From positions 5,635 through 69,634 of the forward strand of contig JAPLLR010000017.1 of NCBI GenBank assembly GCA_026387455.1: a stretch of 64,000 nt of DNA, read 5' to 3'. This document shows positions 3,001 through 56,908 of this stretch, piece after piece. Origin of the DNA: Candidatus Omnitrophota bacterium. Lineage in GTDB: Bacteria > Omnitrophota > Gorgyraeia > Gygaellales > Profunditerraquicolaceae. Position 1 is the first letter of the stretch. Each line of letters starts with the position of its first letter. A program made the position numbers and the translations under genes. The notes under the pieces were generated by a model. That model was not told the origin of the DNA. It saw only the letters and a list, made by a program, of their open reading frames with translations, and ran no database searches.

Positions 3001-6000
3001 ATTGTAAGCGTTGGCAGTGCCGGCTGCGGACATCCCGGCACTGGCCGTGGTATTATCCAGGAAGGCGACTGTGGAAGCCGCGGCAGAATCGCTGATGGTA
3101 ATGGTGTTGGCGGTAAAGGTATTGCCGAAGGTCGCTCCGCCGGAATTAGTGATAGTGACAACGCCGATATCAGTGCCCACAGTACCGGTGACAGAGACTG
3201 CTCCGGTAAGATTAAAGGTAACATTGGACGCTGGTAATCCGGCTGTGCCGGCGATACTGGTCACAGTTGCACCGCCCGAACCGCCGGTGCCTAAGGTCAA
3301 GGTAACGCCGTCGCTTAAAGTGGTATTACCCAGGGTGATCAGGCCGCTTCCCGCGGCCAGAGTGCTGGAGCCGGTTACCGAGGTAGTGTTGTTTAAGTTG
3401 ATCGGCGCGTTAGTAGAGGAGATATTGCCATCGATAGCGTTGATTCCGGCAGTGTGAGTTAGGCCGCCGGCAAAGGCCGAGGCATCGCCGCCGCCGTTAC
3501 CGAAGGTGACACTACCGGTATTAGCCAGTGTAGTCGCCCCGACCCCGGCAATAGTATTGGTGCCGCCGGTAAAAGAAATATTGTAAGCGTTGGCAGTGCC
3601 GGCTGCGGACATCCCGGTTAAGGCCGTGGTATTATCCAGGAAGGCGACTGTGGAAGCCGCGGCAGAATCGCTGATGGTAATGGTGTTAGCGGTCACTGAA
3701 TTACTAAACGTAGCGCCGTTACTGCTAATAATAGTTAATACATTTATAGGCGAAACTCCGCCTCCTGCGCCCACCGCACCAGTTAAACTTATAACTCCAG
3801 TAGTTCCTGCTCTTAAACTTAGATTCCGGTTTGCTCCTGAACTATCAGTAGTACCGGTAATGCCGATAGCCGCTCCTGTTACAGTTCCGCCGACATTGGT
3901 GGTATCAAGTAATATATTCGCACCGAGCAATACATTATCGCTGATGTTTATCGCCCTGCCTGCGGTAGTGATATTGGCATTAAGAGTAGTAGCTCCCCCT
4001 CCGTCAATAGTAACAGAAGCATCATCTGAACCTGTAACCAGACCATTAACTGTGATAGAACCGCTGGGTGATTGAATAGTCACCGGATCATAAAAAGTGA
4101 CATTACCAGCTAGTACGCTTACCGTGATAAGCCCTGATGTGTCTAAGCGACCGATGGTAATCGAGCTGAATCCATTCTTCAAAGCCAAAATGTCCGCTGC
4201 GGATAAGTCCAGTATACCCGCACCTCCAGCTATACCTATACTTGTAGCTGCGGCTGAGGGCTGAAGAAGAATGGTGCTAGAGCCGGTCACGGAATTCGCG
4301 CCGCCCAGTAAATCTATCTCATCGGCAGTAAGAATCAAAGCATTTGCTCCGGCAGCCAAATTATTATTCACCGTTACAGTCGCCGTTCCGGCGTTGATAG
4401 TGACAGGACCTCCTAAACTTACCGGAGTATTTGCAGCAAAGGTAATATTGTTGTTAGTAGTTGTCAGATCTCCGTTCAAGGTCACGGTTCCGCCTGAACC
4501 CGTGGTATAAGTCTGGGTATTGGTGGTACGCGTAGCCTGCATCCCTATAGTCCCATTAGTCCCGCCAGCTCCTCCGGTAGTAGTAATGCTTAAATCATCT
4601 ACATAAGAGCCACCAGCATTGCTTAAGGCCACGCTTGTTACATTGCCTCCGGCTGAGCCGGCATTAGTAGTCGCGGTATTTAATGTAAGGTCGCGATTTG
4701 CCGCGTTCGCCGATACACCTGTGCCTGCCAGAGTAATCCCGCCAGCAGAGGCATTATTATCCTGCTCAGTATCAATAGTTATACTTGCCCCTAATCGGAT
4801 ATCTCCGGTCAAACTCACACTGCTCAGATCGCCATTAGTATCCACTAAGATATTATTACCCAGAGTAATCGTTCCGTCTATAGCAGCATCGGTAGTTACG
4901 GAAAAATCATTAATATACTTATCCCCGCCAGCATTATTATCCACTAAACCGATGGTCACTGCTCCGCCTGAGGCATCGGCAAAACTGGTAGAAGCATCGA
5001 TATTAAAATCATAGCCTACAGCATTAGCATAAATATTGGAGGTCCCTAAATTAACTGCTCCGGCATTATTGTTATTTCCTGTTTCCGTATCTATGGTTAC
5101 GCCGTTAGCTCTGATATCGATATCCTTGCCGCCGCTTACCGTAACAGTTCCGTTATCCGTAGAAAGATTTGCTCCCATCCTAAGTGAAGACGGGTTTGTA
5201 AAAGATATCCCCCCGCCTGTTCCGCCGCTAGTATCAATGGCGTTGCCCACTGTCACTACGCCGGTATTATTAATGGTGACACTCCCGCCATTAGTAGTAA
5301 TTGTGCCACTGGTATTATTAAAGGTAGTGCCGCTGGATTGAAAAGCGCCTCCTCCAGTAGTCACAGCTAAACCTAGCGTTACTGCCCCACTATGATTTAG
5401 AGTTACGCCGCCGCCACCTCCACTTGTAGAAATCGTCCCGCTGGTAAGATTTTCGAATGTGGTTCCAGCAGAACTAAAAGTTCCGCCATTGGTGTTAATC
5501 TGATCTCTGATTTGCACACCCGTGGTGTGCGCGCTTAAGTCTACATTGCCGCCATTAGTAGTAATTGTTGCTCCAACCTGACTATCGAAAGATGTTCCGT
5601 CAGAAATAAAACTGCCTGTGCCTGTATTGATGGTATCTCTAATATTTACTGTTCCACTGTGGCCGGTCAAGTCTACATTGCCGCCATTAGTAGTAATTGT
5701 GCCGCCGGCAATAGTTTGAAAATTTGTTCCAGAAGAGCTAAAACTACCTACCCCGCTATTAACCGCCGCACGAATGCCCACCGCACCAGTATGTCCGGTA
5801 AGATTAACATTGCCGCCACTTGTGGTAATCGTACCAGAGGCATTACTGTCAAATGAGGTGCCGCTAGAAGTAAAATTACCACCGCCGGTGGTGATTGCTG
5901 AATTTACATCTACAGTTGTAATGGCAGCCAATGTAACGTTTAATTTACCCGTGCCTCCGGTGTTGGCAATCCCCTGGCTTAGTGTGATACTACCCTGGGC

Positions 6001-7518: not shown

Positions 7519-9194
7519 AGATATACTGTGCTTTTGGAGTTATCCGAAGTCCGGGGATGCAAAGGAAAGCCCCAGTCAGCCTTCAGATAAAAATCTTTCC
7601 AGGGCTGGAACCGAATCCCCCAGCCCGCGCCCATCAAAGTGTCAGAACCGTGTTCTCCCACCAAAGGACTACGCAGCCAACCCTGGCCGTAATCCCAGAA
7701 CCAAACAAACTGGATCTTATCGCGCAATTTATTATTTTTAGGAATTAAGTACACCGGAGTGCGCCATTCAATATTTACGTTATAGCCGCAGTCTCCCATA
7801 AACTCAAGCTCAGGATACCCGCGCACTGTCTGGGCGCCACCAATATAATATTGTTCACCGGCTACCAGCTTGTCCCCCGAATATTGCCCGCGCGCCGAAA
7901 CCAGCAAAAATGAAGACAGCGGCAGGTTTAATCTCCTGCCCACACTAAGCACATACTTGGTAAACTCACCACCCGAACCTAAGCGGCTTGCGTCAGGATC
8001 GTCTTTACCCAAAGCCCCGGCAAAATCCGGAATGCCAAAATCAGTTTCAAAATTCGCATAGGTCGCGCCCCATGCATCAGAACCATCTAAACTAAAATTC
8101 AGCTTGGCCACGCTTACGTTATCACTTGAAGTAGTGGTGCCCAAAAGATAATTCTTACTGTGTTTGATATCTAAACCGAATCCGCCGTTACCGCGGATAT
8201 TCTCGCTATTAATAAAAGGATGCACCACGTATGTCCCAGCTACCCAGGCCCAGCCGTTGGCATCCAACACTTCAAACTCCCTCACCAGGTCAGTCTTGAC
8301 ATAACTGCCATAGCCCCCGATCCGTGTACCCAGATAATTCACCGGCACGTTATAATCCAGGCTTCCGCCGTTAAGCTTCTCGTTGCTTTTTTGGAACCTG
8401 ACGGTAAATATATCGTCAACGCCAAAGAGATTGTTATTGCTGTATCCAACGCCAAAGCGCTGCTTGCCGGTATATTTTGTTCCATAGGTATTATAGTCTA
8501 AGAAAAAGTGCTGTGGATTCTCGTCCGTAACCTTCAAGACCACATCTGTGGTGTCCTTACGCTCACCAGTCAAAAGCACGGCTTTGACTGTACGGTCGGG
8601 ATTGGTATTCAAGCGGCGCACACTCTTCATCAAGTCCTTGTAAAGTACGGTATCTCCTTCGCGGATATGTAATTTCCAACGCACGTATTCCTTATCAAAA
8701 TATTTCCCGCCTTCGATATTAATAGTCCCGATACAACCTTCGACGACTCGGATCTCTATTGTATTATCGATAATCTTTTGCACCGGCACATATACGTATG
8801 TGGTGATATAGCCTTTAGAGCGGTAGAATTTCTGGATAGCGCTGGCTAGCTCATTGAATTCTTTCAAACCCAGGCGCTTATCCTTATACTGGGCTAATAT
8901 AGGTAAAAAGTCCTCAGGAGTAAAAATAGTGACCCCGTTTAAAACAAACTTGACGACCTTCACCCCACCCTCGGTTTTTTCTTCCACCACCGCTTGAGCA
9001 GGCCGCTCATCCTTTACCTCGATCTTTACCTTTGGCTTGATAAGCCCGGACTTTTCCTCCTGCAGGCGCAGAGTATCTTCCATCTGCTGCTCAATAGCCC
9101 CGGCCTTGGTAGAAGCCGGTGCCTGGGCATAAGACGTGGCAACAACACCGAACAGAAACGCCAGAAATAAAATTGCGGTTATTCTTTTATCCAT
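7494..9194 (-). CDS. TpsB outer-membrane transporter of the two-partner secretion system (ShlB/FhaC/HecB family; POTRA domains plus a 16-strand beta-barrel).
   Basis: ORF 7494..9242; the likely start is M17 (MDKRITAILFLAFLFGVVATSYAQA, a signal peptide). It is about 566 aa, as is FhaC. It carries the conserved loop-6 motif YYIGGAQTVRGYPE of ShlB-type barrels. It sits immediately upstream of tpsA, and its stop overlaps the tpsA start by about 25 nt. Confidence 0.7.
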   Translation of the reverse strand: MDKRITAILFLAFLFGVVATSYAQAPASTKAGAIEQQMEDTLRLQEEKSGLIKPKVKIEVKDERPAQAVVEEKTEGGVKVVKFVLNGVTIFTPEDFLPILAQYKDKRLGLKEFNELASAIQKFYRSKGYITTYVYVPVQKIIDNTIEIRVVEGCIGTINIEGGKYFDKEYVRWKLHIREGDTVLYKDLMKSVRRLNTNPDRTVKAVLLTGERKDTTDVVLKVTDENPQHFFLDYNTYGTKYTGKQRFGVGYSNNNLFGVDDIFTVRFQKSNEKLNGGSLDYNVPVNYLGTRIGGYGSYVKTDLVREFEVLDANGWAWVAGTYVVHPFINSENIRGNGGFGLDIKHSKNYLLGTTTSSDNVSVAKLNFSLDGSDAWGATYANFETDFGIPDFAGALGKDDPDASRLGSGGEFTKYVLSVGRRLNLPLSSFLLVSARGQYSGDKLVAGEQYYIGGAQTVRGYPELEFMGDCGYNVNIEWRTPVYLIPKNNKLRDKIQFVWFWDYGQGWLRSPLVGEHGSDTLMGAGWGIRFQPWKDFYLKADWGFPLHPRTSDNSKSTVYLWAHIDLL

Positions 9195-11502
9195 TAGTGA
9201 TCTTAACCAGATAATCCCTAGCCACAGTCTCCTTAGGAGCAAGTATCAGGATCTTAGTAAAATAGTCCTGCGCACTCATATAATCGCCTTCTGAATAAGC
9301 GGCAAAAGCCCGTTGATAAAGATACCCCACCACCCCATCCTGCGTATATTCAGGAGCGCGCTTCTTGGCGGAAACGGATTTTGGCTCTTGTCTTACCGGC
9401 TTGGGCTTTTGCACGGAAATCTTTTTAATAGCGCCTGGTTGCTCTTTAGTATAAGGGGCCGGCTGAGAAGGTTTCTCGCTCCTGGCCATGAGCGCTGCCT
9501 CCTTTTGCTTTGCCTGTTCCCGCTGTTTTTCCATCTGTTCTTCCTGCTTAGCCAGCTGTAGGCGGGCAACTTCCTGCTGCTGAAGCTGCTGCTGACGCTG
9601 CTGCTTGACTACTTTATTCTTAACAACTTCCTGCTGCTTCTGCTGTTTAGCTGCCTGCTGACGGAACTTCTCCTGCCTGGTCAGCTGCTCCTGTTCTAAT
9701 TGCTGACGGTTGGATTCCTCCTGCCAACGCATTTCTTCCTGCTGAGCCAGACGCGCCTGAGACTCATCTTCCCTGACAAGCTTTAATTGATTGGGGATCT
9801 TTTCTTCAAGATAAAGGCGCGCCTGCTGCTGTTTGGAATCCATGCTAAGTATTTGATCGAAACATTCTATTGAAGACTGGTAATCCTGGATATCAAAAGC
9901 GGCCAAAGCCTGGCCGTAAAGGGCTTTGATGTTTTCTTCTCTTAAAGCCTGCGGGATCTTTGTCTGCACAAATTCCTGTGCCTCTAATTCGCCCGGAGAA
10001 AGCGCCAATATCTCTCTAAACTTAGCGTCGGCATAAACAAAATCCCGATTACTGAAATCTCCAAGCGCCTGACTATAAAGAACATTTATCTTTACCAGCT
10101 TGAGTTTCTCCGGAATTTTTACCTGCAGATATTCTTTCGCCTCCTCCTGCGAATTATCTAGCGCCAGAATATCCTTAAAAAGAACCTCTGCCTTGGGATA
10201 ATCCCCGACACTAAAAAACTCAACAGCGTCTTTATAAATATCCTTGATCTTAAGCTGCTTACGCACTTCGGGGATCTTGGCCTGGATGTACTGGATCGCC
10301 TCTGCCTGCGCCGGATCAAGCACCAAAGCCCTGTTGAATATTTCTTCGGCAGCATCATACTGCTGGTTATTGAAAGCTGCAGAGCCATCGTCCAGCAGGC
10401 CTTTTACTTTCTGATCCCTAATCAATCCAGGGATTTTGATTTCCACGTATTCCTTAGCCTCAGCCTGCTTAAGATCTAAAGACAAAATGTCATAGAATAT
10501 CTGCTTTGCCTTATCAAGCTCCTGGTTGTTAAAAGCGGTCAATGCGTCTTTATACAAAACCGCGATCCTCTGCTCTTTAAGCTTCTGCGGAATGCTGACC
10601 TCAAGGTATTCTTTGGCCTTAAACTGGTCCTGGTCAATGGCCAGGATCTCCCTGCAATAATTTGCCGCCTGATCGTAATTAGCGCCGTTAAAAGCCGTAG
10701 CTGCCTGCTGGAAAAGATTATCGATCTTTTCTTTCTTTACGATAAAAGCTATCTTGGCCTCAGCATCATCCCTAATCGCCTTCTGGTCAGGAAATATAGC
10801 CAGCACTTCATTAAACAACTTTACGGCTTTTCCATAATCGCCTATTTCGAAATATTCCAGCCCCTCCTTATAGAGCGACTTTACCTTCTGCTCCTTTACC
10901 AGCTGGGGTATCCGGTCCTGAAAATAATATTTGGCCTCTTTTTCTCCGGGGTCAATGGCCAGGATCGCCTTAAAGATCTCGCTGGCCTGTTCAAAGTTTT
11001 GGCCAAAGAATCGGCTATAGGCCTCCTTATATAGGTAAGCGACCTGATCCTTCTTCTGACGCTCCTTGATCTTATCGGCGCGCTTACTCTCTTTTTCGCC
11101 TTTCGGGCCGCCAATGCGCTCTGCTTTAGTCAGAATATCTATGATCTCCCGCGCCATATTAGCCCTACGCCTTAAATCCTTATCCTTAGTCTCCTGGGCG
11201 ACCTTATTATAAAGAATAAGGGCACTTTCGTACTCACCCAGCTGATAAAGATAATTGGCATCGGCAAACATCTGTTCCGGGGATTTATTCTTGATTTCAA
11301 TAAAGCTTGAGGCGTCCAGCTTGGGCTTGGGCTTAGCCTTGGGCTGCTCTTTGGCAGTGGCTTCAGTAGTAGCCTTTACTTCCGGTGCTTCAGCACAATG
11401 CCCCAAAAGGCACCAGCTAAAGATAAAAACCAGGAACAAAAATCCTAAAATCAGGTATTGGCTCTCTTGAGGATACATAAACGCGCTTGACTGTCTTCTC
11501 AT
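9187..11502 (-). CDS. Secreted repeat protein of about 770 aa. It has at least 7 tandem 53-aa TPR-like repeats, then a Gln/Glu/Lys-rich coiled-coil and basic segment, then a terminal TPR-like unit. It is co-oriented with tpsB and overlaps its start by 8 nt.
   Basis: ORF 9187..11553; the likely start is MRRQSS at 11502, with an AGGAAGG RBS upstream. The N-terminus is a signal peptide (YLILGFLFLVFIFSWCLLGHCAEA). Repeat consensus is xEAKEYLxxKIPxxLKxxKIxxLYxxALxxFxxxDYxxAxxxFxxILxLDxxQ. The C-terminal part contains ...QQEEMRWQEESNRQQLEQEQLTRQEKFRQQAAKQQKQQEVVKNKVVKQQRQQQLQQQ... Confidence 0.55.
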   Translation of the reverse strand: MRRQSSAFMYPQESQYLILGFLFLVFIFSWCLLGHCAEAPEVKATTEATAKEQPKAKPKPKLDASSFIEIKNKSPEQMFADANYLYQLGEYESALILYNKVAQETKDKDLRRRANMAREIIDILTKAERIGGPKGEKESKRADKIKERQKKDQVAYLYKEAYSRFFGQNFEQASEIFKAILAIDPGEKEAKYYFQDRIPQLVKEQKVKSLYKEGLEYFEIGDYGKAVKLFNEVLAIFPDQKAIRDDAEAKIAFIVKKEKIDNLFQQAATAFNGANYDQAANYCREILAIDQDQFKAKEYLEVSIPQKLKEQRIAVLYKDALTAFNNQELDKAKQIFYDILSLDLKQAEAKEYVEIKIPGLIRDQKVKGLLDDGSAAFNNQQYDAAEEIFNRALVLDPAQAEAIQYIQAKIPEVRKQLKIKDIYKDAVEFFSVGDYPKAEVLFKDILALDNSQEEAKEYLQVKIPEKLKLVKINVLYSQALGDFSNRDFVYADAKFREILALSPGELEAQEFVQTKIPQALREENIKALYGQALAAFDIQDYQSSIECFDQILSMDSKQQQARLYLEEKIPNQLKLVREDESQARLAQQEEMRWQEESNRQQLEQEQLTRQEKFRQQAAKQQKQQEVVKNKVVKQQRQQQLQQQEVARLQLAKQEEQMEKQREQAKQKEAALMARSEKPSQPAPYTKEQPGAIKKISVQKPKPVRQEPKSVSAKKRAPEYTQDGVVGYLYQRAFAAYSEGDYMSAQDYFTKILILAPKETVARDYLVKITNG

Positions 11503-12942: not shown

Positions 12943-13419
12943 TTAAGTTCTGGACTTTAAGTCAATAAGCTGTTTTAAATGATGCTGCTCCTGGCGGATC
13001 AATTCATCGATCACTTTTTGGTCATAATCAGGGACGATTTTTTTCATCCCCTCGTAGAAAACAATGGAATCTTCTTCAAACCCGATGCCTCTTTGTATCG
13101 CATCCTCCTTGGTCTTAATTGTCCTTGCGATCTCTTCACCCTTATTTTTCTGAGTAAAGATATGCTCTGCGGCCAGGCTTCTCATGTAAGCGCTGTATTC
13201 ATCAGCATCCAGGCCCTGCGGCTCATATTTTTCAACCTTGTCCAATATCCCCTGAAAAACCTTAACATGCTTCTCTTCTTCTATCGCTAAAAACTCAAAT
13301 ACTTGGCTTGCCGTAGTAGCTTTAAATTGCTTTGCCAACGTATTATAAAAGTCCCTGCCGTTTTTCTCGATCTGTATCCCCAGTTCCACCACTTCACTGG
13401 CAGAAAATATATTTCCCAT
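12943..13419 (-). CDS. Ferritin-like / rubrerythrin-like diiron protein.
   Basis: 158 aa with ExxH-type motifs (LAIEEEKH, LAAEHIF, RQEQHH) typical of rubrerythrin-type four-helix bundles. An AGGAGGG RBS lies immediately upstream. Confidence 0.5.
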   Translation of the reverse strand: MGNIFSASEVVELGIQIEKNGRDFYNTLAKQFKATTASQVFEFLAIEEEKHVKVFQGILDKVEKYEPQGLDADEYSAYMRSLAAEHIFTQKNKGEEIARTIKTKEDAIQRGIGFEEDSIVFYEGMKKIVPDYDQKVIDELIRQEQHHLKQLIDLKSRT

Positions 13420-13473
13420 ATACCCTCCTTGCGCAAAAAGCGCAACACTGGCCTATCCTTTAAGGCCAGGTGT
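13420..13473 (-). promoter_or_regulatory. Conserved structured 5' leader, copy 1. On the mRNA it forms two hairpins directly upstream of the GGAGGG RBS and ATG of the rubrerythrin-like gene.
   Basis: Plus-strand reads accctccttgcgcaaaaagcgcaacactggcctatcctttaaggccaggtgt. TTGCGC-AAAAA-GCGCAA is a perfect hairpin. cactggcc...ggccaggtg forms a second hairpin. The same 55-nt leader recurs at 17680-17734 with a compensatory change. Confidence 0.55.
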
Positions 13474-13507
13474 AGCAGAAAGCTGCACCCCAGCTAAAAG
13501 GTATGCT

Positions 13508-13536
13508 GGGTGCGTCCTTTTTAGGACGCAACACCC
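13508..13536 (-). terminator. Rho-independent terminator candidate after the PNPOx-like gene.
   Basis: gggtgcgtcc-ttttta-ggacgcaacaccc stem-loop, with a U-rich run following on the minus strand. Confidence 0.45.
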
Positions 13537-13559
13537 GCCAATCCTTTATGGCGAGGTAC

Positions 13560-14018
13560 TTACTTAATATTCTTCGGCGTTAAATCCACTATCTCTTCTA
13601 TGTCTATTTCGATCATATATTTAGGGTCAGGCAGAAGCGCTTCCGGATGGGCCTTGTGGCCTTTCTCCTCATGGATATTCCTTAAAAGCCGCTGCGCCAG
13701 CCTCCCGGCAATTTTATCTTCCCAGGCTTTGAGAATATCCGCGGTCAACTCTTCTTTAGACACCAGCCGGGCCTTACCTTTAAGACAGTAACCTGAGAAT
13801 TTATGTTCATTTACCGCGGTAATACTTACGTGGGGATTATGAACCAGATTCTTGTAGGTTTCGGCGTGGTAAACATCCAGAAGAAAGACCTTGCCTTCAA
13901 CTTTAACCTTGATTATATCCTTACAGGCACTGTGGGCATAGCCTTTAGCGTCGATGGTCGAAACGATCACAAACCCCTGATTTGTTAGAAAATTTATTAC
14001 GTCTTGCGAAATCTGCAT
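13560..14018 (-). CDS. Pyridoxamine 5'-phosphate oxidase family (FMN-binding split-barrel) protein.
   Basis: 152 aa; N-terminal pattern VINFLTNQGFVIVSTIDAKGYAH typical of PNPOx-like flavin proteins. Confidence 0.5.
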   Translation of the reverse strand: MQISQDVINFLTNQGFVIVSTIDAKGYAHSACKDIIKVKVEGKVFLLDVYHAETYKNLVHNPHVSITAVNEHKFSGYCLKGKARLVSKEELTADILKAWEDKIAGRLAQRLLRNIHEEKGHKAHPEALLPDPKYMIEIDIEEIVDLTPKNIK

Positions 14019-14022
14019 AGGG

Positions 14023-14202
14023 TTATTCTTTAGGAAGAGTTTTAATCAAATGTTGGAGAAACTCTTTATGCTTTATTTCTTCGGCGACCAGGAAATTAAA
14101 AGTCTCTCTGACCTCGGGAAGCTCGCTGGCAAACTGCTTGTATTTATCTATCGCCACCAGCTCCATGGATAACGCTAAGTTTAACGCCTCAACCGGTCTC
14201 AT
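14023..14202 (-). CDS. Unannotated 59-aa ferritin-like (single ExxH motif) small protein.
   Basis: Hand translation gives MRPVEALNLALSMELVAIDKYKQFASELPEVRETFNFLVAEEIKHKEFLQHLIKTLPKE. The start ATG overlaps the stop region of the flavodiiron gene (GGTTAATAATG). It is below the ORF-track length cutoff. Confidence 0.45.
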   Translation of the reverse strand: MRPVEALNLALSMELVAIDKYKQFASELPEVRETFNFLVAEEIKHKEFLQHLIKTLPKE

Positions 14203-14204
14203 TA

Positions 14205-15398
14205 TTAACCCCCTTTTATCTTTGCGGCAAACTCTTTGCCGAATTCATAGCAGCGTTTTGATTCTGCTTCATCCGGAACATACTTTATCCCAATCCCTGG
14301 CTGGGCCAGAGTCAAACCGGATCTATTAATCAACTCTTCAAGATCCTTTACTGCTCCGCCTGCCCACCCGAATGAACCAAATGCCGCAGCAATCCTGTTT
14401 TTAGGAGTTAACCCTCTGACAAATTCCAGAAACCCCGCCATAGAAGGAAGCATGCTGTTATCGTGCGTGGAAGAACCGAAAATAAACCCTTTGGAATCCA
14501 GCATCTCCTTAATTATCTCTGTGCGATCAGAAGTAGTTACGTCAAATATCTTAACGCTCACTCCGGATTCAAGGATACCATCAGCAATCTTACGCGCCAT
14601 CTTTTCAGTCGAGCCCCACATAGTTTCATAAGCGATCACTACTTTAGGCATGGCTGAATTCTTTGCCCAATAAACGTATTTTTCAACTATTTGCATGGGG
14701 TCCTTGCGCCAGATCACTCCGTGGCTGGGAGCAATTATTTTTATAGGTAGCCCCATTTTTTTGACCTCTTCGATCTTCTTCAAGATAATCACCCCTAATG
14801 GCCAAAGAATATTGCCGTAATATTTTGCCGCCTCATCCCAAAGCGAACACTGATCCACCTCATCAGCAAAACGCTCGGAGGTAGCGAAATGCTGACCAAA
14901 AGCGTCATTAGGCATGAGCAAGGCATCTTCCGGGCAATAAGTAAACATACTATCCGGCCAGTGGATCATGGGGACCTCAAGAAAACTTAAAGTTCTTTTG
15001 CCCAGCTTCAAGGTATCCCCGGTTTTTACTACCTGAAAATCCCAGTTTTCGTAATAGTTTTTAAACAAACCTTCTTTACATTTTTGTGTGCCCAGGACTT
15101 TTGCTTTCGAACAGAGCTTCATTAATTCCGGCAGCGCTCCGGAGTGATCCGTCTCTACGTGGTTAGCGATCACATAATCTATTTTTTCAGGCGGAATTAT
15201 CTGCTTTATATTCTCAATAAGTTCAGCGGAGAATGAGCCTAAAACCGTATCCACCAGAGCGATTTTTTCGTCTATTATCAAATAGGCATTATAGGTAGTG
15301 CCACGCTTAGTAGTATAGGTGTGGCCGTGAAAGGTGCGTACGTTCCAGTCGATCACACCGATAGAGTAGAGGTTATCTAAAATCTTAATTGCGGACAT
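14205..15398 (-). CDS. Flavodiiron protein (FprA / rubredoxin:oxygen oxidoreductase type; metallo-beta-lactamase-like domain plus flavodoxin domain).
   Basis: 397 aa. HxExDH-type diiron motif (ANHVETDHSGALP) in the N-terminal MBL-like domain; C-terminal flavodoxin-like domain (KVVIAYETMWGSTEKMA). Confidence 0.8.
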   Translation of the reverse strand: MSAIKILDNLYSIGVIDWNVRTFHGHTYTTKRGTTYNAYLIIDEKIALVDTVLGSFSAELIENIKQIIPPEKIDYVIANHVETDHSGALPELMKLCSKAKVLGTQKCKEGLFKNYYENWDFQVVKTGDTLKLGKRTLSFLEVPMIHWPDSMFTYCPEDALLMPNDAFGQHFATSERFADEVDQCSLWDEAAKYYGNILWPLGVIILKKIEEVKKMGLPIKIIAPSHGVIWRKDPMQIVEKYVYWAKNSAMPKVVIAYETMWGSTEKMARKIADGILESGVSVKIFDVTTSDRTEIIKEMLDSKGFIFGSSTHDNSMLPSMAGFLEFVRGLTPKNRIAAAFGSFGWAGGAVKDLEELINRSGLTLAQPGIGIKYVPDEAESKRCYEFGKEFAAKIKGG

Positions 15399-15409
15399 TG
15401 CATTCTCCT

Positions 15410-16117
15410 TTAATATCCTTGGAAGTTCTCAGTCACGATCTGCTCTTTAGGTAATAACAGCTCATCACTCAGCATCTTGCGCATAGCCTCTACCATCCCC
15501 GGAGGCCCGCAGAGGAAAAATTTGCGCTCCTTGTAATCAGAAACTTCATTTCTTATGATCGAAGCATTTATATATCCAACCGAGCATTTAAACCCCGGTT
15601 CTGTCTCGCACAATACATGCGCTACCCTCAGTTTAGGGTACATTTTTTGCATGGCGCTTAAGTCGTCCTTAAAGACAATATCCTTAACAGAGCGATTGGA
15701 ATATACCAGCACTATATCAACCCCCAGATTTCTATCCACCACATCCTTGGTGATACTACGTAGCGGAGTTATCCCGATACCTCCGGAAAGAAAGGCGATT
15801 TTTCCAGCAGGATTATCCTCCAACGTAAATTTGCCAAACGGATACTGAATCTGTAATTCGTCCCCCGGCTTCAACGCATCCATAGCTTTTGAAAAATCAC
15901 TCTGGCTTAATTTCTTAGTGAACTCCAGATGGCATTTCTCGGAAGGTGAGCTTGAAATGGATAGATAGTGCTTCAGCTGCGGATTATTTTGCAGGGTGAC
16001 CTGTAATAATTGGCCGGCCTTGAAATTTATGTCTTGAACCCGCTCAACGCGCACGCTTTTGACATTGTAGTTACGCTGGATAATCTCAATTACCTTCGTC
16101 GCTACTTCCGCCGGCAT
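15410..16117 (-). CDS. FNR-like FAD/NAD(P)-binding oxidoreductase, the probable NAD(P)H-dependent reductase partner of the rubredoxin/FDP/SOR chain.
   Basis: 235 aa. Ferredoxin-reductase-type module signatures: LSGGIGITP NAD-binding glycine motif and CGPPGM near the C-terminus. Confidence 0.6.
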   Translation of the reverse strand: MPAEVATKVIEIIQRNYNVKSVRVERVQDINFKAGQLLQVTLQNNPQLKHYLSISSSPSEKCHLEFTKKLSQSDFSKAMDALKPGDELQIQYPFGKFTLEDNPAGKIAFLSGGIGITPLRSITKDVVDRNLGVDIVLVYSNRSVKDIVFKDDLSAMQKMYPKLRVAHVLCETEPGFKCSVGYINASIIRNEVSDYKERKFFLCGPPGMVEAMRKMLSDELLLPKEQIVTENFQGY

Positions 16118-16119
16118 AT

Positions 16120-16971
16120 CTAGAATCCCAATTCATCGATTATTTTCGACATTATAAAATCATTTTCTGTAAGACCGCCTGCAACATGAGTAGTCAGGGT
16201 AATCCTCACCTTATTATAAATTATGGTAATGGTCGGATGATGTCCCTGTTCTTCGGCAATCACCGCAACCAGGTCCAGAAAATACTTGGCCTCTATAAAA
16301 TTCTTAAATTTGAATTCTTTGACCAGCTTTTTATCCTCAACCAACTCCCAGCCGCTGCGCTGGGCGAGAAGTTTCTCGATTTTATCTTTTGGTAAAGCTG
16401 CAACTGCGCCCTCACAAGGCTTGCATTTTACAGGAGAAGTTTCCTGCACAGCTATCGAGGGATTCTTTAAAACTTCTGCCAAACTCTTAAGCACATCATC
16501 GTAATCAGGGGATTTGGTTATTTCTGTAACCAGCTGAAAATAACGCACCACATCAGCCTTATCCACAATGATCACGCTGCGGCCCAGAAGATTCAGTTCC
16601 TTTATAAGCAACCCATAGTTAATCCCAAACGAAGTAGTCTGGTAGTCAGAAACTACCTGGACATTCTTAATACCGAATGTCTCACAAAAGCGCTTCTGGG
16701 CAAAAGGAAGATCCTTGCTGATTCCGACTATCACCACGTCAGAAAATAGGCCCGTAGCGCGCTTGTTGAATTCTTTAACCTGCAGGTCGCAAACCGGAGT
16801 ATCAATAGATGGGAAGGATGTGATGACCTTGATTTTACCTTTGAAATCCTCAAGGGTAATCGGCAAAAGGTCCTGTGAAACGACCCTGAATCCCGGAGCA
16901 CTAGCGCCGACCCTGACAGGCCTGCCCACCAGCGTCAGCGGATTTCCCTGAAAAGTTACTTTACCTGACAT
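16120..16971 (-). CDS. tpx: Fusion protein. N-terminal thiol peroxidase (Tpx, atypical 2-Cys peroxiredoxin) joined to a C-terminal pterin-4a-carbinolamine dehydratase (PCD/DCoH)-like domain.
   Basis: Residues 1-165 align along their length with E. coli Tpx (VTFQGNPLTL..., SFPSIDTPVCDLQ, DLPFAQKRFC, VTEITKSPDYDDVL). Residues about 200-283 carry the PCD signature (GW...FKFKNF..A..F...VA..AEEQGHHPTITIIYNKVRITLTTHVAGGLTENDF). Confidence 0.7.
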   Translation of the reverse strand: MSGKVTFQGNPLTLVGRPVRVGASAPGFRVVSQDLLPITLEDFKGKIKVITSFPSIDTPVCDLQVKEFNKRATGLFSDVVIVGISKDLPFAQKRFCETFGIKNVQVVSDYQTTSFGINYGLLIKELNLLGRSVIIVDKADVVRYFQLVTEITKSPDYDDVLKSLAEVLKNPSIAVQETSPVKCKPCEGAVAALPKDKIEKLLAQRSGWELVEDKKLVKEFKFKNFIEAKYFLDLVAVIAEEQGHHPTITIIYNKVRITLTTHVAGGLTENDFIMSKIIDELGF

Positions 16972-16980
16972 AGCCGCTTC

Positions 16981-17139
16981 CTATAGTTTCCCGAACATAT
17001 CTTTGCCCACTCCGCAATCAGGGCAGACCCATGTGTCCGGCAATGCCGCAAAGCTTGTTCCGGGCTTTATGCCTTGAGTATCATCTCCTACAGCAGGGTC
17101 ATAGATATATCCGCATACAGTGCACTTATATTTATCCAT
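16981..17139 (-). CDS. rub: Rubredoxin (52 aa), not in the ORF track.
   Basis: Hand translation gives [52 protein letters not shown]. It has the two CxxCG knuckles and the rubredoxin aromatic core. Confidence 0.85.
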
Positions 17140-17157
17140 GATATCTCCTTCCTTCGC

Positions 17158-17553
17158 TTACGCTATTTCAATTTTTTTAGAGCTTTGCCAGAGTCCGTGA
17201 ATATTACAATATGAAACAGCTAGAAGTGTACCGCTCTTCTCGGTCTTAAAGACACAGATAGCCTCAGGGTTAGTGTAAATAGTGCTGGTGCTTGGGCCCT
17301 GAGTCGACTCCCCGTGCGCGCCAAACTCAAATCTACCTATCTGGTATGGAAACTTCTCTCCGTCAGCCTGAAAATAAAGCGCTGCCCAGCTGATATGATG
17401 CTCGGTGGTATTGGGATGAGCTATCTCTTTACCGATAGTAACAACTATCTTAACCGCATCGCCTTTTTTTATTTTATCAGGGGCGTCGATCACCGGAACA
17501 TGTTTTTCGGTTTTCCAGTCCGCCGTCTGCAAAAGATCTTTTAATTCTGACAT
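17158..17553 (-). CDS. sor: Superoxide reductase (desulfoferrodoxin / neelaredoxin family).
   Basis: 131 aa. EKHVPVI motif and His/Cys ligands (HPNTTEHHISW, YCNIHGLW) of the SOR iron-binding domain. Confidence 0.75.
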   Translation of the reverse strand: MSELKDLLQTADWKTEKHVPVIDAPDKIKKGDAVKIVVTIGKEIAHPNTTEHHISWAALYFQADGEKFPYQIGRFEFGAHGESTQGPSTSTIYTNPEAICVFKTEKSGTLLAVSYCNIHGLWQSSKKIEIA

Positions 17554-17610
17554 GATTGCCTCCTAAAAATGCGTCCGGGCACAGCCTAAAAGCCATGCCC
17601 GGACATAAGC

Positions 17611-17679
17611 TTATTTCTTCTTTTTCTTTGCCTTTTTCTTGGGTTTCTTAGCCTTGCATCCGCAGCTTCCACAAGCCAT
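17611..17679 (-). CDS. Candidate 22-aa Cys-rich, Lys-rich microprotein.
   Basis: ATG preceded by GGAGGG and by leader copy 2. Translation is MACGSCGCKAKKPKKKAKKKKK. Confidence 0.3.
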   Translation of the reverse strand: MACGSCGCKAKKPKKKAKKKKK

Positions 17680-17734
17680 ACGACCCTCCTTGCGCAGAAA
17701 GCGCAACACTGGCTTATCCTATAAAGCCAGGTGT
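17680..17734 (-). promoter_or_regulatory. Conserved structured 5' leader, copy 2, upstream of the Cys-rich microORF and the sor-rub-tpx-FDP gene string.
   Basis: acgaccctccttgcgcagaaagcgcaacactggcttatcctataaagccaggtgt. The GCGCAA hairpin is retained. The first hairpin changes from ggcc/ggcc to ggct/agcc, a compensatory C:G to U:A change. Confidence 0.55.
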
Positions 17735-17761
17735 TTCACCCTTTACAGCCCCATTATACCC

Positions 17762-19138
17762 CTATTTTAAAATATCTGCCATGTCTTTTTCCGCAGTGGT
17801 AATAAGCTTAAGATCAAAGTTATCCTGCAGCACCTTAAACACATTCGGCGAAATAAACGCCGGAGGTGTCGGGCCTACGCGGATACCCTTAATGCCTAAA
17901 TGCAAAAGGGTCAACAGAATAGCCACTGCCTTTTGCTCAAACCAGGATAACACCAGAGTAAGCGGAAGGTCATTCACCCCGCAATTAAACACCTTGGATA
18001 AAGCCAGCGCCACCTGGATAGCGGAATAAGCGTTATTACACTGTCCGATATCAATTAAACGCGGAATCCCTTCGATCTCACCGAAATCAAGCTTGTTAAA
18101 GCGATACTTTCCACAAGCCAGAGTAAAGATCACGCAATCTTTGGGCACTCTCTCAGCAAGCTCAGTGTAGTAATTTCTTCCCGGCTTTGCTCCATCGCAT
18201 CCACCGATAAGGAAGAAGTGCTTGATCTTTCCGGCCTTGACCAGCCCGACGACCTTATCCGCTAACCCCACAGGGGTAGCCCTTCCTGTACCTTTTAACC
18301 CCACAGGGGTAGCCCTTCCTGTACCTTTTAAGGAAGGGGCTAAGGAAGGGGCTAACCCCAGAATTGCTGTATGATGAAAACCAGTAAGAATCTTTTTTCC
18401 GAGAGTCTCAGGTAAAGAAACCAGAGATTTAGCCTTAGCAATCAGCTCTTTAAAATCCCTATTTTTCAGATGCTTTGCCCCTGTCACTCCGGTGATCCCA
18501 ATAGTGAACAGTTTGTCTAAATAAGAATTATCCGGAGGAATCAATACGCAGTTGGTAGTAGCTAATATAGCTCCGCCAAAAACACTAAACTCTTTCTTCT
18601 GCTCCTGCCAGGCGCCACCATAATTACCCACCAGGTGCTTAAATTTCTTTAATTCCGGATACGCATGCGCCGGAAGCATTTCGCTATGCGTATAAACATT
18701 AACCCCCGTCCCTTCAGTCTGTTTCAATAATTCATACAGGTCCAAAAGATCATGTCCGGTAACTAAAATTCCAGGGCCGGCTTTGGTTCCGGTATCAACC
18801 GCAGTCGGCACAGGATTACCAAACTTAACCGTATGCGCCTTATCCAATAGCTCCATAGTACGTAAGTTCATCTCTCCGCACTTAAGGACTTCTTGAATAT
18901 AATCGTTAAGGTCAAAACTGACGTTAGTTACGGTCTTAAAGAGCGCCTCGTGCATAAAACCATCCACCACTTCATCCTTAGCCCCTAATTCGCGCGCATG
19001 ATAAGCGTATGCCGCGATACCCTTTAATCCAAAAAGTAAAATATCCTGCAAGCTCTGAATATCAGGGTCTTTGCCGCAAACACCTATCTTTGTGCAACCG
19101 CTTCCACCTGCTGTTTGTTCGCATTGATAACAAAACAT
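17762..19138 (-). CDS. hcp: Hybrid cluster protein (hydroxylamine reductase, Hcp) carrying an in-frame insertion of about 30 aa.
   Basis: N-terminal MFCYQCEQTAGGSGCTKIGVCGK cysteine motif. ADKVVGLVKAGKIKHFFLIGGCDGAKPGRNYYTE and the C-terminal region match Hcp. The segment LAPSLAPSLKGTGRATPVGLKGTGRATPVGL interrupts the conserved block. Confidence 0.8.
   Translation of the reverse strand: MFCYQCEQTAGGSGCTKIGVCGKDPDIQSLQDILLFGLKGIAAYAYHARELGAKDEVVDGFMHEALFKTVTNVSFDLNDYIQEVLKCGEMNLRTMELLDKAHTVKFGNPVPTAVDTGTKAGPGILVTGHDLLDLYELLKQTEGTGVNVYTHSEMLPAHAYPELKKFKHLVGNYGGAWQEQKKEFSVFGGAILATTNCVLIPPDNSYLDKLFTIGITGVTGAKHLKNRDFKELIAKAKSLVSLPETLGKKILTGFHHTAILGLAPSLAPSLKGTGRATPVGLKGTGRATPVGLADKVVGLVKAGKIKHFFLIGGCDGAKPGRNYYTELAERVPKDCVIFTLACGKYRFNKLDFGEIEGIPRLIDIGQCNNAYSAIQVALALSKVFNCGVNDLPLTLVLSWFEQKAVAILLTLLHLGIKGIRVGPTPPAFISPNVFKVLQDNFDLKLITTAEKDMADILK
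18261..18354. repeat. Palindromic repeat element inserted in-frame inside hcp: two tandem 32-nt units, then two 12-nt inverted units, flanked by the direct repeat gctaacccca.
   Basis: ccccacaggggtagcccttcctgtacctttta occurs twice (18266-18297 and 18299-18330), then aggaaggggcta occurs twice (18331-18354). gctaacccca is present at 18261-18270 and again at 18351-18360. A related copy, ccccacaggggtaggccttcc...aggaagagcc, lies at 51961-52000. Confidence 0.7.
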
Positions 19139-19151: not shown

Positions 19152-19222
19152 TAATTTGCCCTCGTTTCCTTCGAGGCAAATTACCCCGAAGCGTATCCCG
19201 AAAATATCGAAGAGATTTTCGG
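19152..19222. repeat. Composite hairpin element of the conserved-loop family: hairpin A (aatttgccctcg...cgaggcaaatt) followed by hairpin B (cccgaaaat-ATCGAAGAG-attttcggg).
   Basis: Perfect inverted repeats read directly from the sequence. The element lies between the 4Fe-4S/zinc-ribbon genes and the hcp start. Confidence 0.6.
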
Positions 19223-19243
19223 GATGATTACGCGAGGGGTTAA

Positions 19244-20216: not shown

Positions 20217-20672
20217 CTAAAACAATGAAGCAATGGTAACCAGCCTTAACTCCTTAAGTACATACTGTTCTATTTTATCGATTTTCTTCTTAAGCGCGCA
20301 TCTTTTTATGTTAGGACAGACTACTTTTTTAAAAAGACATTCATTCAAACGAAATTTCCCCTGAAAGATCTCCATCAGTCCCAATAAGGAAATGCTCTCT
20401 GCGGACCTAGCCAACAGAAATCCTCCCCCCCTACCTTTATAGGCCACAAGCACACCTTCTTTATGCAATATCTGAAGGATCTTTCTTAAAAATGGTTTGG
20501 GGATTTTAAGCTCTTTAACTAAATCCCCTACATTGACGATCTCGTTTTTTCTACCCAGCATAAAACATAAAGCCCTTAACGCGTAATCCGTATCTCTGGT
20601 GATTAATTTCACCCCGCCCTTCCTTTCTAAAGACCCTCGCCCTACTTTAGGAAGGGCGGGGTTCATTCTCAC
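20217..20672 (-). CDS. Rrf2-family transcriptional regulator (NsrR/IscR-like), probably Fe-S cluster-binding. The true start is probably internal to the listed ORF.
   Basis: KLITRDTDYALRALCFML winged-helix N-terminus. Three clustered Cys (ECLFKKVVCPNIKRC) as in NsrR/IscR. It lies adjacent to hcp, the classical NsrR target. Confidence 0.7.
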   Translation of the reverse strand: MRMNPALPKVGRGSLERKGGVKLITRDTDYALRALCFMLGRKNEIVNVGDLVKELKIPKPFLRKILQILHKEGVLVAYKGRGGGFLLARSAESISLLGLMEIFQGKFRLNECLFKKVVCPNIKRCALKKKIDKIEQYVLKELRLVTIASLF

Positions 20673-20797
20673 AAAAAAATGCTACTGGGCAGTTTTACGT
20701 CTTACCCAGGACAAAATACTACAACCCTCTTTGCAGTGGGCGACCGGGCGCAGCATATACTTAACAGTAATATCCATGGCAGAGCTCCTTTCAGAGT

Positions 20798-20820
20798 AAT
20801 GATACCACATCAGTATCATT
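20798..20820. promoter_or_regulatory. Candidate operator: perfect dyad AATGATAC-n7-GTATCATT upstream of the Rrf2 regulator gene.
   Basis: aatgataccacatcagtatcatt, with 8-bp arms that are exact reverse complements. Confidence 0.35.
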
Positions 20821-20857
20821 TGTCAAGAAAAAAATCCTCTATTCTTTAAATATCCTA

Positions 20858-26949: not shown

Positions 26950-27060
26950 TTTTCCCATAGAATTTGCCCTCGTTTAAGTTGTTTGCAAATTCATCCCGAA
27001 GCCTTGGCCAAAATTATGGAACAGAATTTTGGCCAGTTTAGGCGAGGGACGAGTGAGTCC
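26950..27060. repeat. Composite hairpin element (family member) with a 10-bp perfect stem ggccaaaatt-ATGGAACAG-aattttggcc.
   Basis: Its flanks (gcaaattcatcccgaagcc, gagggacgagtg) are shared with the copies at 19150-19250 and 29130-29215. Confidence 0.55.
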
Positions 27061-51960: not shown

Positions 51961-52000
51961 CCCCACAGGGGTAGGCCTTCCCATCCTATAAAGGAAGAGC
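51961..52000. repeat. Intergenic copy of the hairpin element that is inserted in hcp.
   Basis: ccccacaggggtaggccttcc-catcctataa-aggaagagcc. Confidence 0.5.
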
Positions 52001-52070
52001 CTTATGCCCTCACTTAAATAGACGTAAAGGAAGGCAAAATCTAACAGAAAATCTTAGGATATTTGCGACT

Positions 52071-55956: not shown

Positions 55957-56190
55957 TTGCGCTTTCTGCTACACCCAACTTTATAGCACCTTGGCATATA
56001 GGGTTGCCAAGTGCATCCCCTGCGGGATGGAAAAGTTGGTGTTACACTTTCTGCTTTACACCCGGCCTTAGCCCCTTCCTTAAAAGGTATAGGAAGGGCT
56101 ACCCCTCTGGGGTTATAGGATAGGCCGGTGTGCCGCTTTCTGCTACACCCAACTTTATAGGAAAAGTTGGTGTTCCGCTTTCTGCGTAAG
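55957..56190. repeat. Iteron-like array: four copies of c[ga]ctttctgc[t][a]acaccc, two of them arranged as an inverted pair (acacccaacttt/aaagttggtgt).
   Basis: Copies at about 55965, 56046, 56136 and 56175. It lies immediately upstream of the RBS of the RHH-like gene. Confidence 0.5.
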
Positions 56191-56200
56191 GAGGATTAAA

Positions 56201-56518
56201 ATGCTGCTGAGACAACAGGTGCTGATTGAAGACTGGCTAGTAGAATACTTAAAATTTCTGTCTGAAAAATACGATTTAAGCTATTCCGAAGTCATCAGGC
56301 TGGGATTATGCGCCCAATTCGATGAGATGATCACCTTGGCCTATCCCGACATCAAATCCAAGATAGATAAAAAGAAGTTCCTGCAATTACTGCATAAATC
56401 AGAGAATATCAAAGAATCGCGCGAAGAGCTATTAAAAGCGATTTCCGCGGTATATTTTGAAGCCCGCAAGACCATCGAAGCCCGCATGGCCAAAGAGAAA
56501 AAAGCAAAACACAGGTAA
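56201..56518 (+). CDS. Ribbon-helix-helix (CopG/Arc/MetJ-like) DNA-binding protein, 105 aa.
   Basis: Strong RBS TAAGGAGG. N-terminus QQVLIEDWLVEYLKFLSEKYDLSYSEVIRLGL fits the beta-strand plus two-helix RHH pattern. Confidence 0.45.
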   Translation: MLLRQQVLIEDWLVEYLKFLSEKYDLSYSEVIRLGLCAQFDEMITLAYPDIKSKIDKKKFLQLLHKSENIKESREELLKAISAVYFEARKTIEARMAKEKKAKHR

Positions 56519-56785: not shown

Positions 56786-56829
56786 CATTTACTTTAATTT
56801 TCCTCATCAGCAAATGTGTCCCGTAGCTT

Positions 56830-56860
56830 GTGCCGAAAATATCGAAGAAATTTTCGGCAC
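56830..56860. repeat. Hairpin of the conserved-loop family, between the two tRNAs: gtgccgaaaat-ATCGAAGAA-attttcggcac.
   Basis: 11-bp perfect stem. The stem differs from the 19196 copy (cccgaaaat/attttcggg) by a compensatory C/G swap. It may double as a tRNA terminator. Confidence 0.55.
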
Positions 56861-56908
56861 GTTTAAGCAAGAGACACCAAAAATACTTTCCTCCCCATAA
56901 CCCTTCGC

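Follow-up and report, generated by a model that had tools for sequence, protein, structure and literature searches.

The stretch of DNA analysed here (the window) comprises 64,000 nt of contig JAPLLR010000017.1 from a Candidatus Omnitrophota bacterium. It carries a gene cluster for Rrf2, a Fer4 protein, Hcp, superoxide reductase, rubredoxin, Tpx, a flavodiiron protein, a PNPOx-like protein, a rubrerythrin-like protein, glutaredoxin and thioredoxin reductase, which is a typical oxidative-stress island of an anaerobe. Two short sequences in this island, here called copies A and B, abut the Shine-Dalgarno (SD) sequences of two of its units and were regarded in the initial annotation as one structured leader specific to them. 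Downstream of copy A is a rubrerythrin-family gene (12943-13419, ATG at 13419), and downstream of copy B is a 22-codon micro-open reading frame (micro-ORF; 17611-17679) rich in Cys and Lys, which is followed by the superoxide reductase gene, sor. The identities of the rubrerythrin and micro-ORF/sor units rest on the Pfam annotation of syntenic loci in relatives.

On the minus (gene) strand, copy A (13473-13420) reads ACACCTGGCCTTAAAGGATAGGCCAGTGTTGCGCTTTTTGCGCAAGGAGGGTAT and copy B (17734-17680) reads ACACCTGGCTTTATAGGATAAGCCAGTGTTGCGCTTTCTGCGCAAGGAGGGTCGT, both being followed by ATG. The two can be aligned over 52 nt with 92 % identity and constitute the sole such pair found by the repeat finder in the window (family D14), confirming that they are the same element. 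Both share a layout of 52-55 nt, in which ACACC and a 6-7-bp stem precede the loop T(A/T)AAGGAT; the complementary arm, GTGT, TTGCGC-TTT(T/C)T-GCGCAA and GGAGGGT come after this loop, and the ATG is located 4-5 nt past the last of these. The full stem of hairpin 1, ACA(C)CTGGCCT...AGGCCAGTGT, comprises 10 bp plus a bulged C. The paired change described earlier in this stem is genuine, as CTGGCC/GGCCAG in copy A corresponds to CTGGCT/AGCCAG in copy B (one C-G to U-A exchange), and a single base distinguishes the loops of hairpin 1 in the two copies (TTAAAGGATA versus TTATAGGATA). Hairpin 2 had been called identical in the two copies; this holds for the stem (TTGCGC/GCGCAA) but not for the loop, which is TTTTT in one and TTTCT in the other. 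Both copies continue with AAGGAGGGT, and the junction between spacer and AAGGAG seen in copy A recurs at many other loci. The parts of the two copies are as follows.

13445..13473, minus strand: hairpin 1 of copy A, ACA-C-CTGGCCT / loop TAAAGGAT / AGGCCAG-TGT; covariance-model match of 45.9 bits (E 5e-11), forms in the fold
13429..13444, minus strand: spacer hairpin of copy A, TGCGC-TTTTT-GCGCA-A, from sequence and fold; adjoins the SD AAGGAGG (13424-13430)
17706..17734, minus strand: hairpin 1 of copy B, stem CTGGCTT/AAGCCAG; model match of 45.0 bits
17690..17705, minus strand: spacer hairpin of copy B, TGCGC-TTTCT-GCGCA-A, from sequence and fold; adjoins the SD (17685-17691)

Only these two copies had been described. 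Both are real, and more were found in the window, at 13529-13559, at 13485-13515 and in an array at 55959-56193. The 140-nt spacer between the PNPOx-like and rubrerythrin genes, which holds copy A, contains two more units with short conserved spacers between them: an inverted unit and copy C, which begins directly 3' of the stop codon of the PNPOx-like gene (13560). The inverted unit belongs to a 'CCCAGC' stem subfamily that is also present in three loci of relatives (L119, L122 and L125) and in 20 metagenome loci, and the CCGTCCTAAAAAGGACGC spacer recurs with unchanged polarity in at least nine other arrays. The array at 55959-56193 precedes an ORF of 105 codons unrelated to the genes behind copies A and B. 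In total, the window holds eight covariance-model matches at E<0.01, of which six are type-I units (hairpin 1 plus spacer) and two are of a second form, type II, which reads CCCTTCC-TTAAAAGGTAYA-GGAAGGG and then CTA-CCCC-TNT-GGGG. Six different stems occur within the window alone.

13475..13486, minus strand: spacer motif GCAGCTTTCTGC between the inverted unit and copy A (motif search)
13485..13515, plus strand: inverted hairpin 1 of the 'CCCAGC' stem subfamily, loop TAAAAGGTAT in plus-strand reading; model match of 36.8 bits
13511..13528, minus strand: central spacer hairpin GCGTCC-TAAAAA-GGACGC, common to copy C and the inverted unit (from sequence)
13529..13559, minus strand: hairpin 1 of copy C, stem CTCGCCA/TGGCGGG, fully paired; model match of 39.4 bits
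42623..42664, plus strand: type-II copy, intergenic; model match
51962..52002, minus strand: type-II copy, intergenic, downstream of leuS; model match, repeat family D12
55959..56193, plus strand: array of type-I units ending CCGCTTTCTGCGT-AAGGAGG, upstream of ORF 56201-56518; model matches
55987..56029, plus strand: type-I unit of 43 nt, made up of hairpin 1 and spacer, that interrupts a second hairpin 1 within its loop, at TATAG^GA; outer halves at 55971-55986 and 56030-56043
56071..56115, plus strand: type-II element GCCCCTTCC-TTAAAAGGTATA-GGAAGGGC-TA-CCCC-TCT-GGGG-T, plus TA, interrupting the loop of a hairpin 1 whose outer halves lie at 56058-56070 and 56116-56131
56145-56174, plus strand: intact hairpin 1 within the array; model match

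A type-I unit of ~43 nt is composed of a 29-nt bulged hairpin (flanks ACAC-C/GGTGT, with the bulged C) and a spacer of ~14 nt, which is mostly a small GC hairpin (GC.GCTTTCTGC.. or GTCCTAAAAAGGAC). Its flanks and the asymmetric loop TAWAGGAW are conserved, and the stem can be of almost any sequence. In arrays, successive hairpins start 42-44 nt apart, orientations are mixed (+-, -+-, +-+) and the spacers are conserved; a frequent composite is made of a sense hairpin, a spacer, an inverted 'CCCAGC' hairpin, a spacer and the SD.

A first, gap-free alignment of ten hand-picked copies had invariant flanks and loop, and stem columns that vary yet pair (99 % paired, with double changes in 7 of the 10 pairs). 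The covariance model (R1) was built on the 31-nt hairpin core, and metagenome loci were retrieved with a 27-mer specific to one stem subfamily, which found 20 such loci, two of them on contigs of 838 kb and 676 kb. Across 235 kb (the window, four syntenic loci and the 20 metagenome loci), the model detected 73 copies, 50 of which are distinct. Among the distinct copies, 95 % of the positions are paired and double changes affect 9 of the 10 pairs, a level reached by none of 500 shuffles and not approached by slid controls. At least 21 different stems were found, and identical stems recur at unlinked loci and across genomes. Excluding the loop-closing pair, the pair cells comprise 437 Watson-Crick, 8 G.T and 4 A.C combinations; the scarcity of wobble pairs and the lack of asymmetry between strands are more in keeping with a DNA palindrome, or with a hairpin that has to form on either strand, than with a typical RNA helix.

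The family was found in one clade and becomes sparse beyond it: in three more distant Omnitrophota hcp loci, we found one strong copy in L147, weak ones in L146 and none in L148. The 27-mer had no match in viral contigs, and a 16-base pattern run over genome contigs gave scattered single matches only, where ~280 are expected by chance by our own estimate; the matches in Kuenenia and Scalindua were inspected and dismissed as chance. No Rfam model matched the element between 12900 and 18200, either at gathering thresholds or at E<=10, the only hit being an irrelevant snoRNA, and a full-text literature search retrieved no description of short interspersed palindromic repeats in Omnitrophota.

The syntenic relatives, in which Hcp is 82-89 % identical to that of the window, are represented by L119, L120, L122-124 and L125. 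At site A, the PNPOx-rubrerythrin spacer, the window has three units in 140 nt. The same spacer in L119 (93 nt) contains a decayed unit, the arms of which no longer pair, and a unit of an entirely different stem subfamily (CCAACTT/AAGTTGG), identical to the copy at 56145 of the window; that in L120 (103 nt) is occupied by a different repeat type, and that in L122 is 10 nt long and repeat-free. At site B, the spacer between hcp and the micro-ORF, other repeat types are found in L119, L120 and L122, and L125 is repeat-free. The SD, the micro-ORF and the genes are kept throughout while the elements at both sites change. Because the SD is the same with other repeats or none upstream, it is the gene's own, at least at site A and at sor. 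The spacer between a small upstream ORF and the Rrf2 gene shows a like turnover: a tandem array of four to five inverted units is found in L122, and type-II copies nested inside a type-I loop in L120. The idea of a regulatory leader shared by the two stress units is thus not borne out, as the element is replaced or absent at the orthologous sites.

Comparison of stems across the family alters the meaning of the paired change in hairpin 1. The stem variants of both copies are subfamilies present at other loci and in other genomes; that of copy B, for instance, was also found upstream of carA in L131. As these variants recur family-wide, the 'compensatory change' separates two subfamilies and is not a local substitution. 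Pairing is indeed maintained in the family, as had been claimed from the two copies, but the difference between A and B did not arise in place.

Several loci record the gain, loss or insertion of whole units. In the window, removal of the nested 43 nt from 55971-56043 restores, base for base, the intact copy at 56145-56174. L129 carries a 43-nt unit at the same loop point of a different stem subfamily, and its removal gives the intact copy of L136; a third nested case (44 nt) occupies the equivalent loop point in L147. At TTA^TAWAGGA, hairpins of two stem subfamilies, one in the window and the other in L129, are each longer by 45 nt of type-II material (43 plus TA), a length compatible with a TA target duplication but ambiguous. 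L122 and L126, with identical flanks, differ by 2x44 nt upstream of the DUF1622 gene and by 2x42 nt upstream of the Rrf2 gene. Only in L120, an 88-nt block of two units lies exactly between GCATTTT and the TAGGAGG of sor, a site that is empty in the window, L119 and L122. Finally, hcp of the window has received type-II material within its coding sequence:

~18269..18358 (with an uncertainty of a few bases), minus strand: in-frame insert of 90 nt (30 aa) of type-II material in hcp (17762-19138), GLAPSLAPSLKGTGRATPVGLKGTGRATPV

The insert includes a 33-nt tandem duplication (repeat family D12) and gives an Hcp of 458 aa, compared with 428-430 aa in every relative, which appears as a 30-aa gap in the alignment. 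It is absent from all the 119 other Hcp homologues listed (428-441 aa).

Apart from this insert, all clusters lie between ORFs, the few ORFs that seem to 'span' them being over-long start calls. A typical array is flanked on one side by a promoter-like TTGACA/TATAAT and on the other by the SD of the next gene. The genes downstream have no connection with redox stress: we found frr, carA, genes for an acyl-CoA dehydrogenase, an aconitase-family protein, a VWA protein and a DUF1622 protein, and tRNA-Gly, so the proposed specificity for two stress units cannot be upheld. The distance between the end of the outermost hairpin and an SD-preceded start is 14-27 nt, in most cases 24-25 nt, in 17 of 26 arrays, compared with 16 % for random intergenic positions (p=2e-8); among the nine misses, two have technical causes, as the micro-ORF is under the 60-aa cut-off and one gene is cut by a contig end. 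AAGGAG precedes 17 of 20 element-associated starts versus 19 of 86 other called genes in the same loci (p=3e-7). Spacer motifs are in sense orientation in 38 cases and antisense in 2. Of 18 arrays, 16 have their 5'-most hairpin in sense orientation, whereas the SD-proximal one is sense in 9 and antisense in 9. The bias of the first hairpin and of the spacers makes the composite polar although its hairpins are not. The register may reflect targeting of AGGA/GGAG or selection for an arrangement of hairpin plus SD; targeting would also explain the nesting of units in the SD-like loops of their own kind, which is always of one polarity.

Folding of copies A and B and of the copy at 56145 yields hairpin 1 and the spacer hairpin, and leaves the SD unpaired, contrary to the suggestion that the element occludes the ribosome-binding site. 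In the 148-nt site-A spacer, and in the minimum-free-energy fold only, the SD pairs with the CCUUUU loop of the inverted unit; we discounted this fold as evidence and rejected occlusion. Two further ideas, the TAWAGGAT loop as a -10 box and a pseudoknot between the CUUUCU spacer loop and the SD, were rejected by reasoning only, on grounds of spacing and geometry. As for transcription, two promoter-like sites are relevant.

17753-17758, minus strand: TATAAT, -10-like box just 3' of the hcp stop (ATGGCA-18-TATAAT, 10/12 matches)
20799-20826, minus strand: Rrf2 promoter, TTGACA-16-TATCAT, overlapping the palindrome TGATAC-N6-GGTATCA, conserved in all relatives

GGGTATAAT around the former is kept in L119, L120 and L122, and copy B is located ~20 nt downstream of this TATAAT. 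Given the conserved box upstream, copy B probably lies in the 5' untranslated region (UTR), judging by the start of transcription that the sequence predicts. For copy A, which lies between cistrons, the spacer yielded no promoter-like site. The palindrome in the Rrf2 promoter occurs once in the window (20800-20818), with nothing similar near copy A or B, and is likely to be an autoregulatory operator.

The region upstream of Rrf2 has further features of its own. A conserved small Cys-containing ORF (MDITVKYMLRPVAHCKEGCSILSW..., ~20700-20790, minus strand) precedes Rrf2 in all relatives, and the spacer between the two is a hot spot of repeats. Just upstream of the Rrf2 start in the window, a long perfect hairpin, CCCCGCCCTTCCT...AGGAAGGGCGGGG (20575-20640, minus strand), occupies the position of the type-I and type-II units of relatives and appears to be another type of palindromic element.

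Taken together, we consider it probable that copies A and B are members of a modular, apparently mobile family of palindromic repeats in one Omnitrophota clade, and not a device dedicated to stress control. The search for further copies with a covariance model, which had been proposed as a check of the leader, did recover additional copies as well as covariation, yet what they delineate is a repeat family rather than a dedicated regulator. If the elements are non-autonomous mobile DNA, they would be spread by an enzyme acting in trans, for which the loop, bulge and flanks of the folded hairpin serve as recognition signals; this would account for stems that are free in sequence but stay paired. 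Insertion, or merely its tolerance, would take place directly 5' of AGGA/GGAG-type motifs, including the SD-like loops of the element's own relatives. In mRNA, the units would form stable hairpins that leave the SD free, and the likeliest effect on the host would be generic, concerning the stability of the 5' end or the insulation of translation initiation, instead of redox-specific control. One more specific version of this scheme, insertion of type-I units between the G's of an SD with AAG left on the 5' side, was rejected: it agrees with the 3' junctions (..AG^GA..) but not with the sequence 5' of the arrays, which is simply A/T-rich.

A number of observations weigh against the mobile-repeat reading. 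The alignment of the 50 distinct copies (A3) was fitted to the model, which inflates the percentage paired, the metagenome loci were picked via one stem subfamily, and the copy number is that of 235 kb of loci. The junction of the hcp insert and the end of the element have TGGGGTTA in common, and GGGTGCCG repeats bound the indels between L122 and L126; template switching or recombination at microhomologies could produce some of the events. The nested type-I inserts are exactly 43 nt long, without target-site duplication or terminal inverted repeats beyond the palindrome itself. No transposase or other mobilising gene was found in ~270 kb, whether beside an array or elsewhere, a weak test because RAYT genes are usually single-copy; tblastn searches with IS200 TnpA and CsrA sequences, also a weak test, gave nothing in all the retrieved DNA. 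A RAYT-like gene suspected between the two arrays of L145 was dismissed, as this stretch contains frr and tRNA genes instead. Lastly, selection for a function at the RNA level could account just as well for the polarity, the SD register and the sense bias of the first hairpin.

What kind of RNA-level function could this be? A cis-regulatory RNA leader dedicated to the rubrerythrin-like and micro-ORF/sor units, as originally envisaged, agrees with the way both copies abut the SD, with the probable place of copy B in a 5' UTR, and with hairpins that fold as predicted and keep pairing through a double change. It is nonetheless highly improbable: the element is replaced or absent in close relatives while genes and SD persist, it stands before unrelated housekeeping genes and a tRNA, its single-copy folds leave the SD unpaired, Rfam has no match at E<=10, and its stem variants are family-wide subfamilies. 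To a dyad operator for the neighbouring Rrf2 or another redox regulator we give practically no credence. Hairpin 2 is a 6-5-6 palindrome, an Rrf2 gene sits in the same cluster, and relatives have repeats between the small upstream ORF and Rrf2; but the best operator candidate is a different palindrome, the one in the Rrf2 promoter, and the spacers of the element vary, it lies downstream of promoters, and many of the genes behind it are not redox genes. A third possibility is a functional modular 5'-UTR element bound by a global RNA-binding protein (CsrA/Rsm-like or other), mobility being secondary or absent. The sense hairpin loop would then present A(N)GGA ~30 nt upstream of the SD, and the conserved TAWAGGAW loop in varying stems, the sense bias of the first hairpin and of the spacers, the fixed register to a strong SD, and even the pairing of the inverted unit's CCUUUU loop with the SD in the 148-nt fold are consistent with it. 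The SD-proximal hairpin is, however, antisense in half of the arrays, G.U pairs account for 8 of 449 cells, unlike the hairpin between micro-ORF and sor described below, which has them, copies decay and turn over between close relatives and also lie upstream of tRNA genes, and a weak test of the retrieved sequence gave no CsrA homologue, so that we regard a global binder as rather improbable.

It is also conceivable that the units are not mobile and that local tandem duplication, slippage and gene conversion between palindromes generated them all. Strain differences that are exact multiples of a unit and bounded by short direct repeats are what such processes leave, as is the 33-nt tandem duplication in hcp, and correction of quasi-palindromes could keep the arms complementary with Watson-Crick pairs only. 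We nevertheless consider this very unlikely, in view of identical units at unlinked loci and in different genomes, of one stem subfamily inserted in another's loop at the same position in independent cases, and of the two-unit block of L120 at a previously empty SD-proximal site. It is attractive, in the opposite direction, to speculate that the composite of sense hairpin, spacer, optional inverted hairpin, CTTTCT spacer hairpin and AAGGAG is a portable translation-initiation cassette, which homes in a single polarity to AGGA/GGAG motifs (the SDs of genes and the SD-like loops of other copies), rewrites the 5' UTRs and ribosome-binding regions of housekeeping genes across the clade and possibly serves as a platform for a global RNA-binding regulator. 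Behind this idea lie the register and polarity of the arrays, their enrichment in perfect SDs and their self-nesting; we put it forward as a speculation that is unlikely to hold.

If A and B are indeed members of a repeat family, hairpins of this kind should not be annotated as stress-specific riboswitches or operators, and similar leaders with 'compensatory' changes in this clade can be different subfamilies of one repeat. If the register truly reflects targeting or function, mobile DNA would be tied directly to the make-up of translation-initiation regions. The rapid gain and loss of units could also serve as a strain marker in metagenomes.

The sor unit itself contains another structure. 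Between the micro-ORF 17611-17679 (MACGSCGCKAKKPKKKAKKKKK) and the SD of sor, a 13-bp hairpin (17572-17605, minus strand) is found at the same place in all five relatives, 100 % paired, with double changes in 6 of 13 pairs and with G.U pairs; the hairpin, after which comes GCAUUUUU, scored terminator-like. This hairpin and the A-rich, poly-Lys micro-ORF look like a leader-peptide or attenuator candidate for sor, and make a better structured leader than copies A and B. Behind sor, relatives have a gene of 118-125 aa without a Pfam match between sor and rubredoxin (L119 11998-12354, L120 4016-4372, L122 11967-12344); in the window, a 52-aa ORF of rubredoxin size (16972-17157) follows sor almost directly, and the 118-125-aa gene seems to be missing.

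Other features of the window lie apart from the type-I and type-II units. Repeats of a third family, ~64-80 nt in length, fold into long hairpins (e.g. ACCCCGC...GCGGGGT with an inner A/T-rich hairpin) and were detected by the repeat finder as D6; one copy stands behind each of two tRNA genes (56713 and 56909), and in relatives copies of this family occupy sites that have type-I units in the window. A c-di-GMP-I-UAU riboswitch aptamer is present at 61729-61805 (minus strand; 67.7 bits, E 1.6e-12, above the Rfam gathering threshold). Positions 1-9240 are a long coding sequence, repetitive within itself at a period of 504 nt and rich in degenerate repeats of 25-40 nt, which probably encodes a giant repeat or adhesin-like protein.

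19176-19239, 26986-27049, 56811-56874 and 57128-57191: copies of the third repeat family, also found in the hcp-sor spacers of L119, L120 and L122

Among known systems, leaders controlled by CsrA/Rsm proteins present A(N)GGA in a hairpin loop together with a GGA in the SD. The sense loop A(A/U)AGGA, ~30 nt upstream of the SD, is reminiscent of these leaders, in resemblance only; half of the SD-proximal hairpins are inverted, copies lie beside tRNA genes, and the weak test for CsrA found none. The type-II insert in hcp recalls the palindromic elements of Rickettsia (RPE; Ogata et al., Science 2000), which are reportedly inserted in frame in protein-coding genes and tolerated there. It is a single in-frame case in a family that is otherwise intergenic, and the sequences are unrelated.

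Miniature inverted-repeat transposable elements (MITEs) of the Correia/ERIC type, when situated in transcribed leaders, can alter mRNA processing or stability, and Correia elements show a TA duplication. The apparent TA duplication of type II is similar, but type-I units have no terminal inverted repeats or target duplication, are far shorter and occur in arrays. MITEs of this type are small, non-autonomous and co-transcribed repeats (background in PMC3049150). BOX elements of Streptococcus pneumoniae (boxA-boxB(n)-boxC) are likewise modular, vary between strains in module number, are predicted to fold when transcribed, can affect co-transcribed genes and lack a transposase of their own (PMC3049150). 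The difference of 2x44 and 2x42 nt between L122 and L126 is variation in module number of the same kind, although the resemblance is confined to organisation: no similarity in sequence is apparent, the modules here are much smaller (43 nt) and lie in either orientation, and BOX elements have no fixed SD register.

The closest parallel is with REP and BIME elements. REPs and REPINs are mobilised by RAYT (Y1/HUH) transposases, and a RAYT gene is flanked by two inverted REPs; no RAYT gene was found in the ~270 kb of retrieved loci. In Proteobacteria, REP/BIME sequences are short bulged palindromes, predominantly extragenic, regularly spaced in alternating orientation, with conserved linkers; their palindromy is kept by complementary changes, and they are often co-transcribed (PMC2817692, PMC3337134, PMC3333891). 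REP loops are known targets for the insertion of insertion sequences (PMC1525189). The Omnitrophota hairpin (29 nt, 10 bp plus a bulged C) compares with the imperfect REP palindrome of ~20-40 nt, and its clusters have a 42-44-nt period, alternating orientations and conserved spacers. REPs exceed 100 copies per genome, and here eight copies were found in an unselected 64 kb and 73 in 235 kb. Unlike REPs, the units lack a 5' GT(A/G)G head: the flanks (T)ACAC-C and GGTGT belong to the stem, and GTAG, which only some units have, lies at their 3' side on the opposite strand. Within one genome, REPs are near-identical, whereas at least 21 stems here share a conserved loop and flanks, and the hairpins of a doublet have different stems, so that no single long hairpin of the REPIN kind can form. 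A fixed SD register and polarity is not a described property of REPs, and the phylum lies outside Proteobacteria. We thus class the family as one that works like an interspersed palindromic repeat of the REP/BIME type, not as a member of the RAYT-REP family, and its unusual traits are a free stem with fixed loop and flanks, the insertion of whole units at one point of the loop, and the polarity and register relative to the SD.

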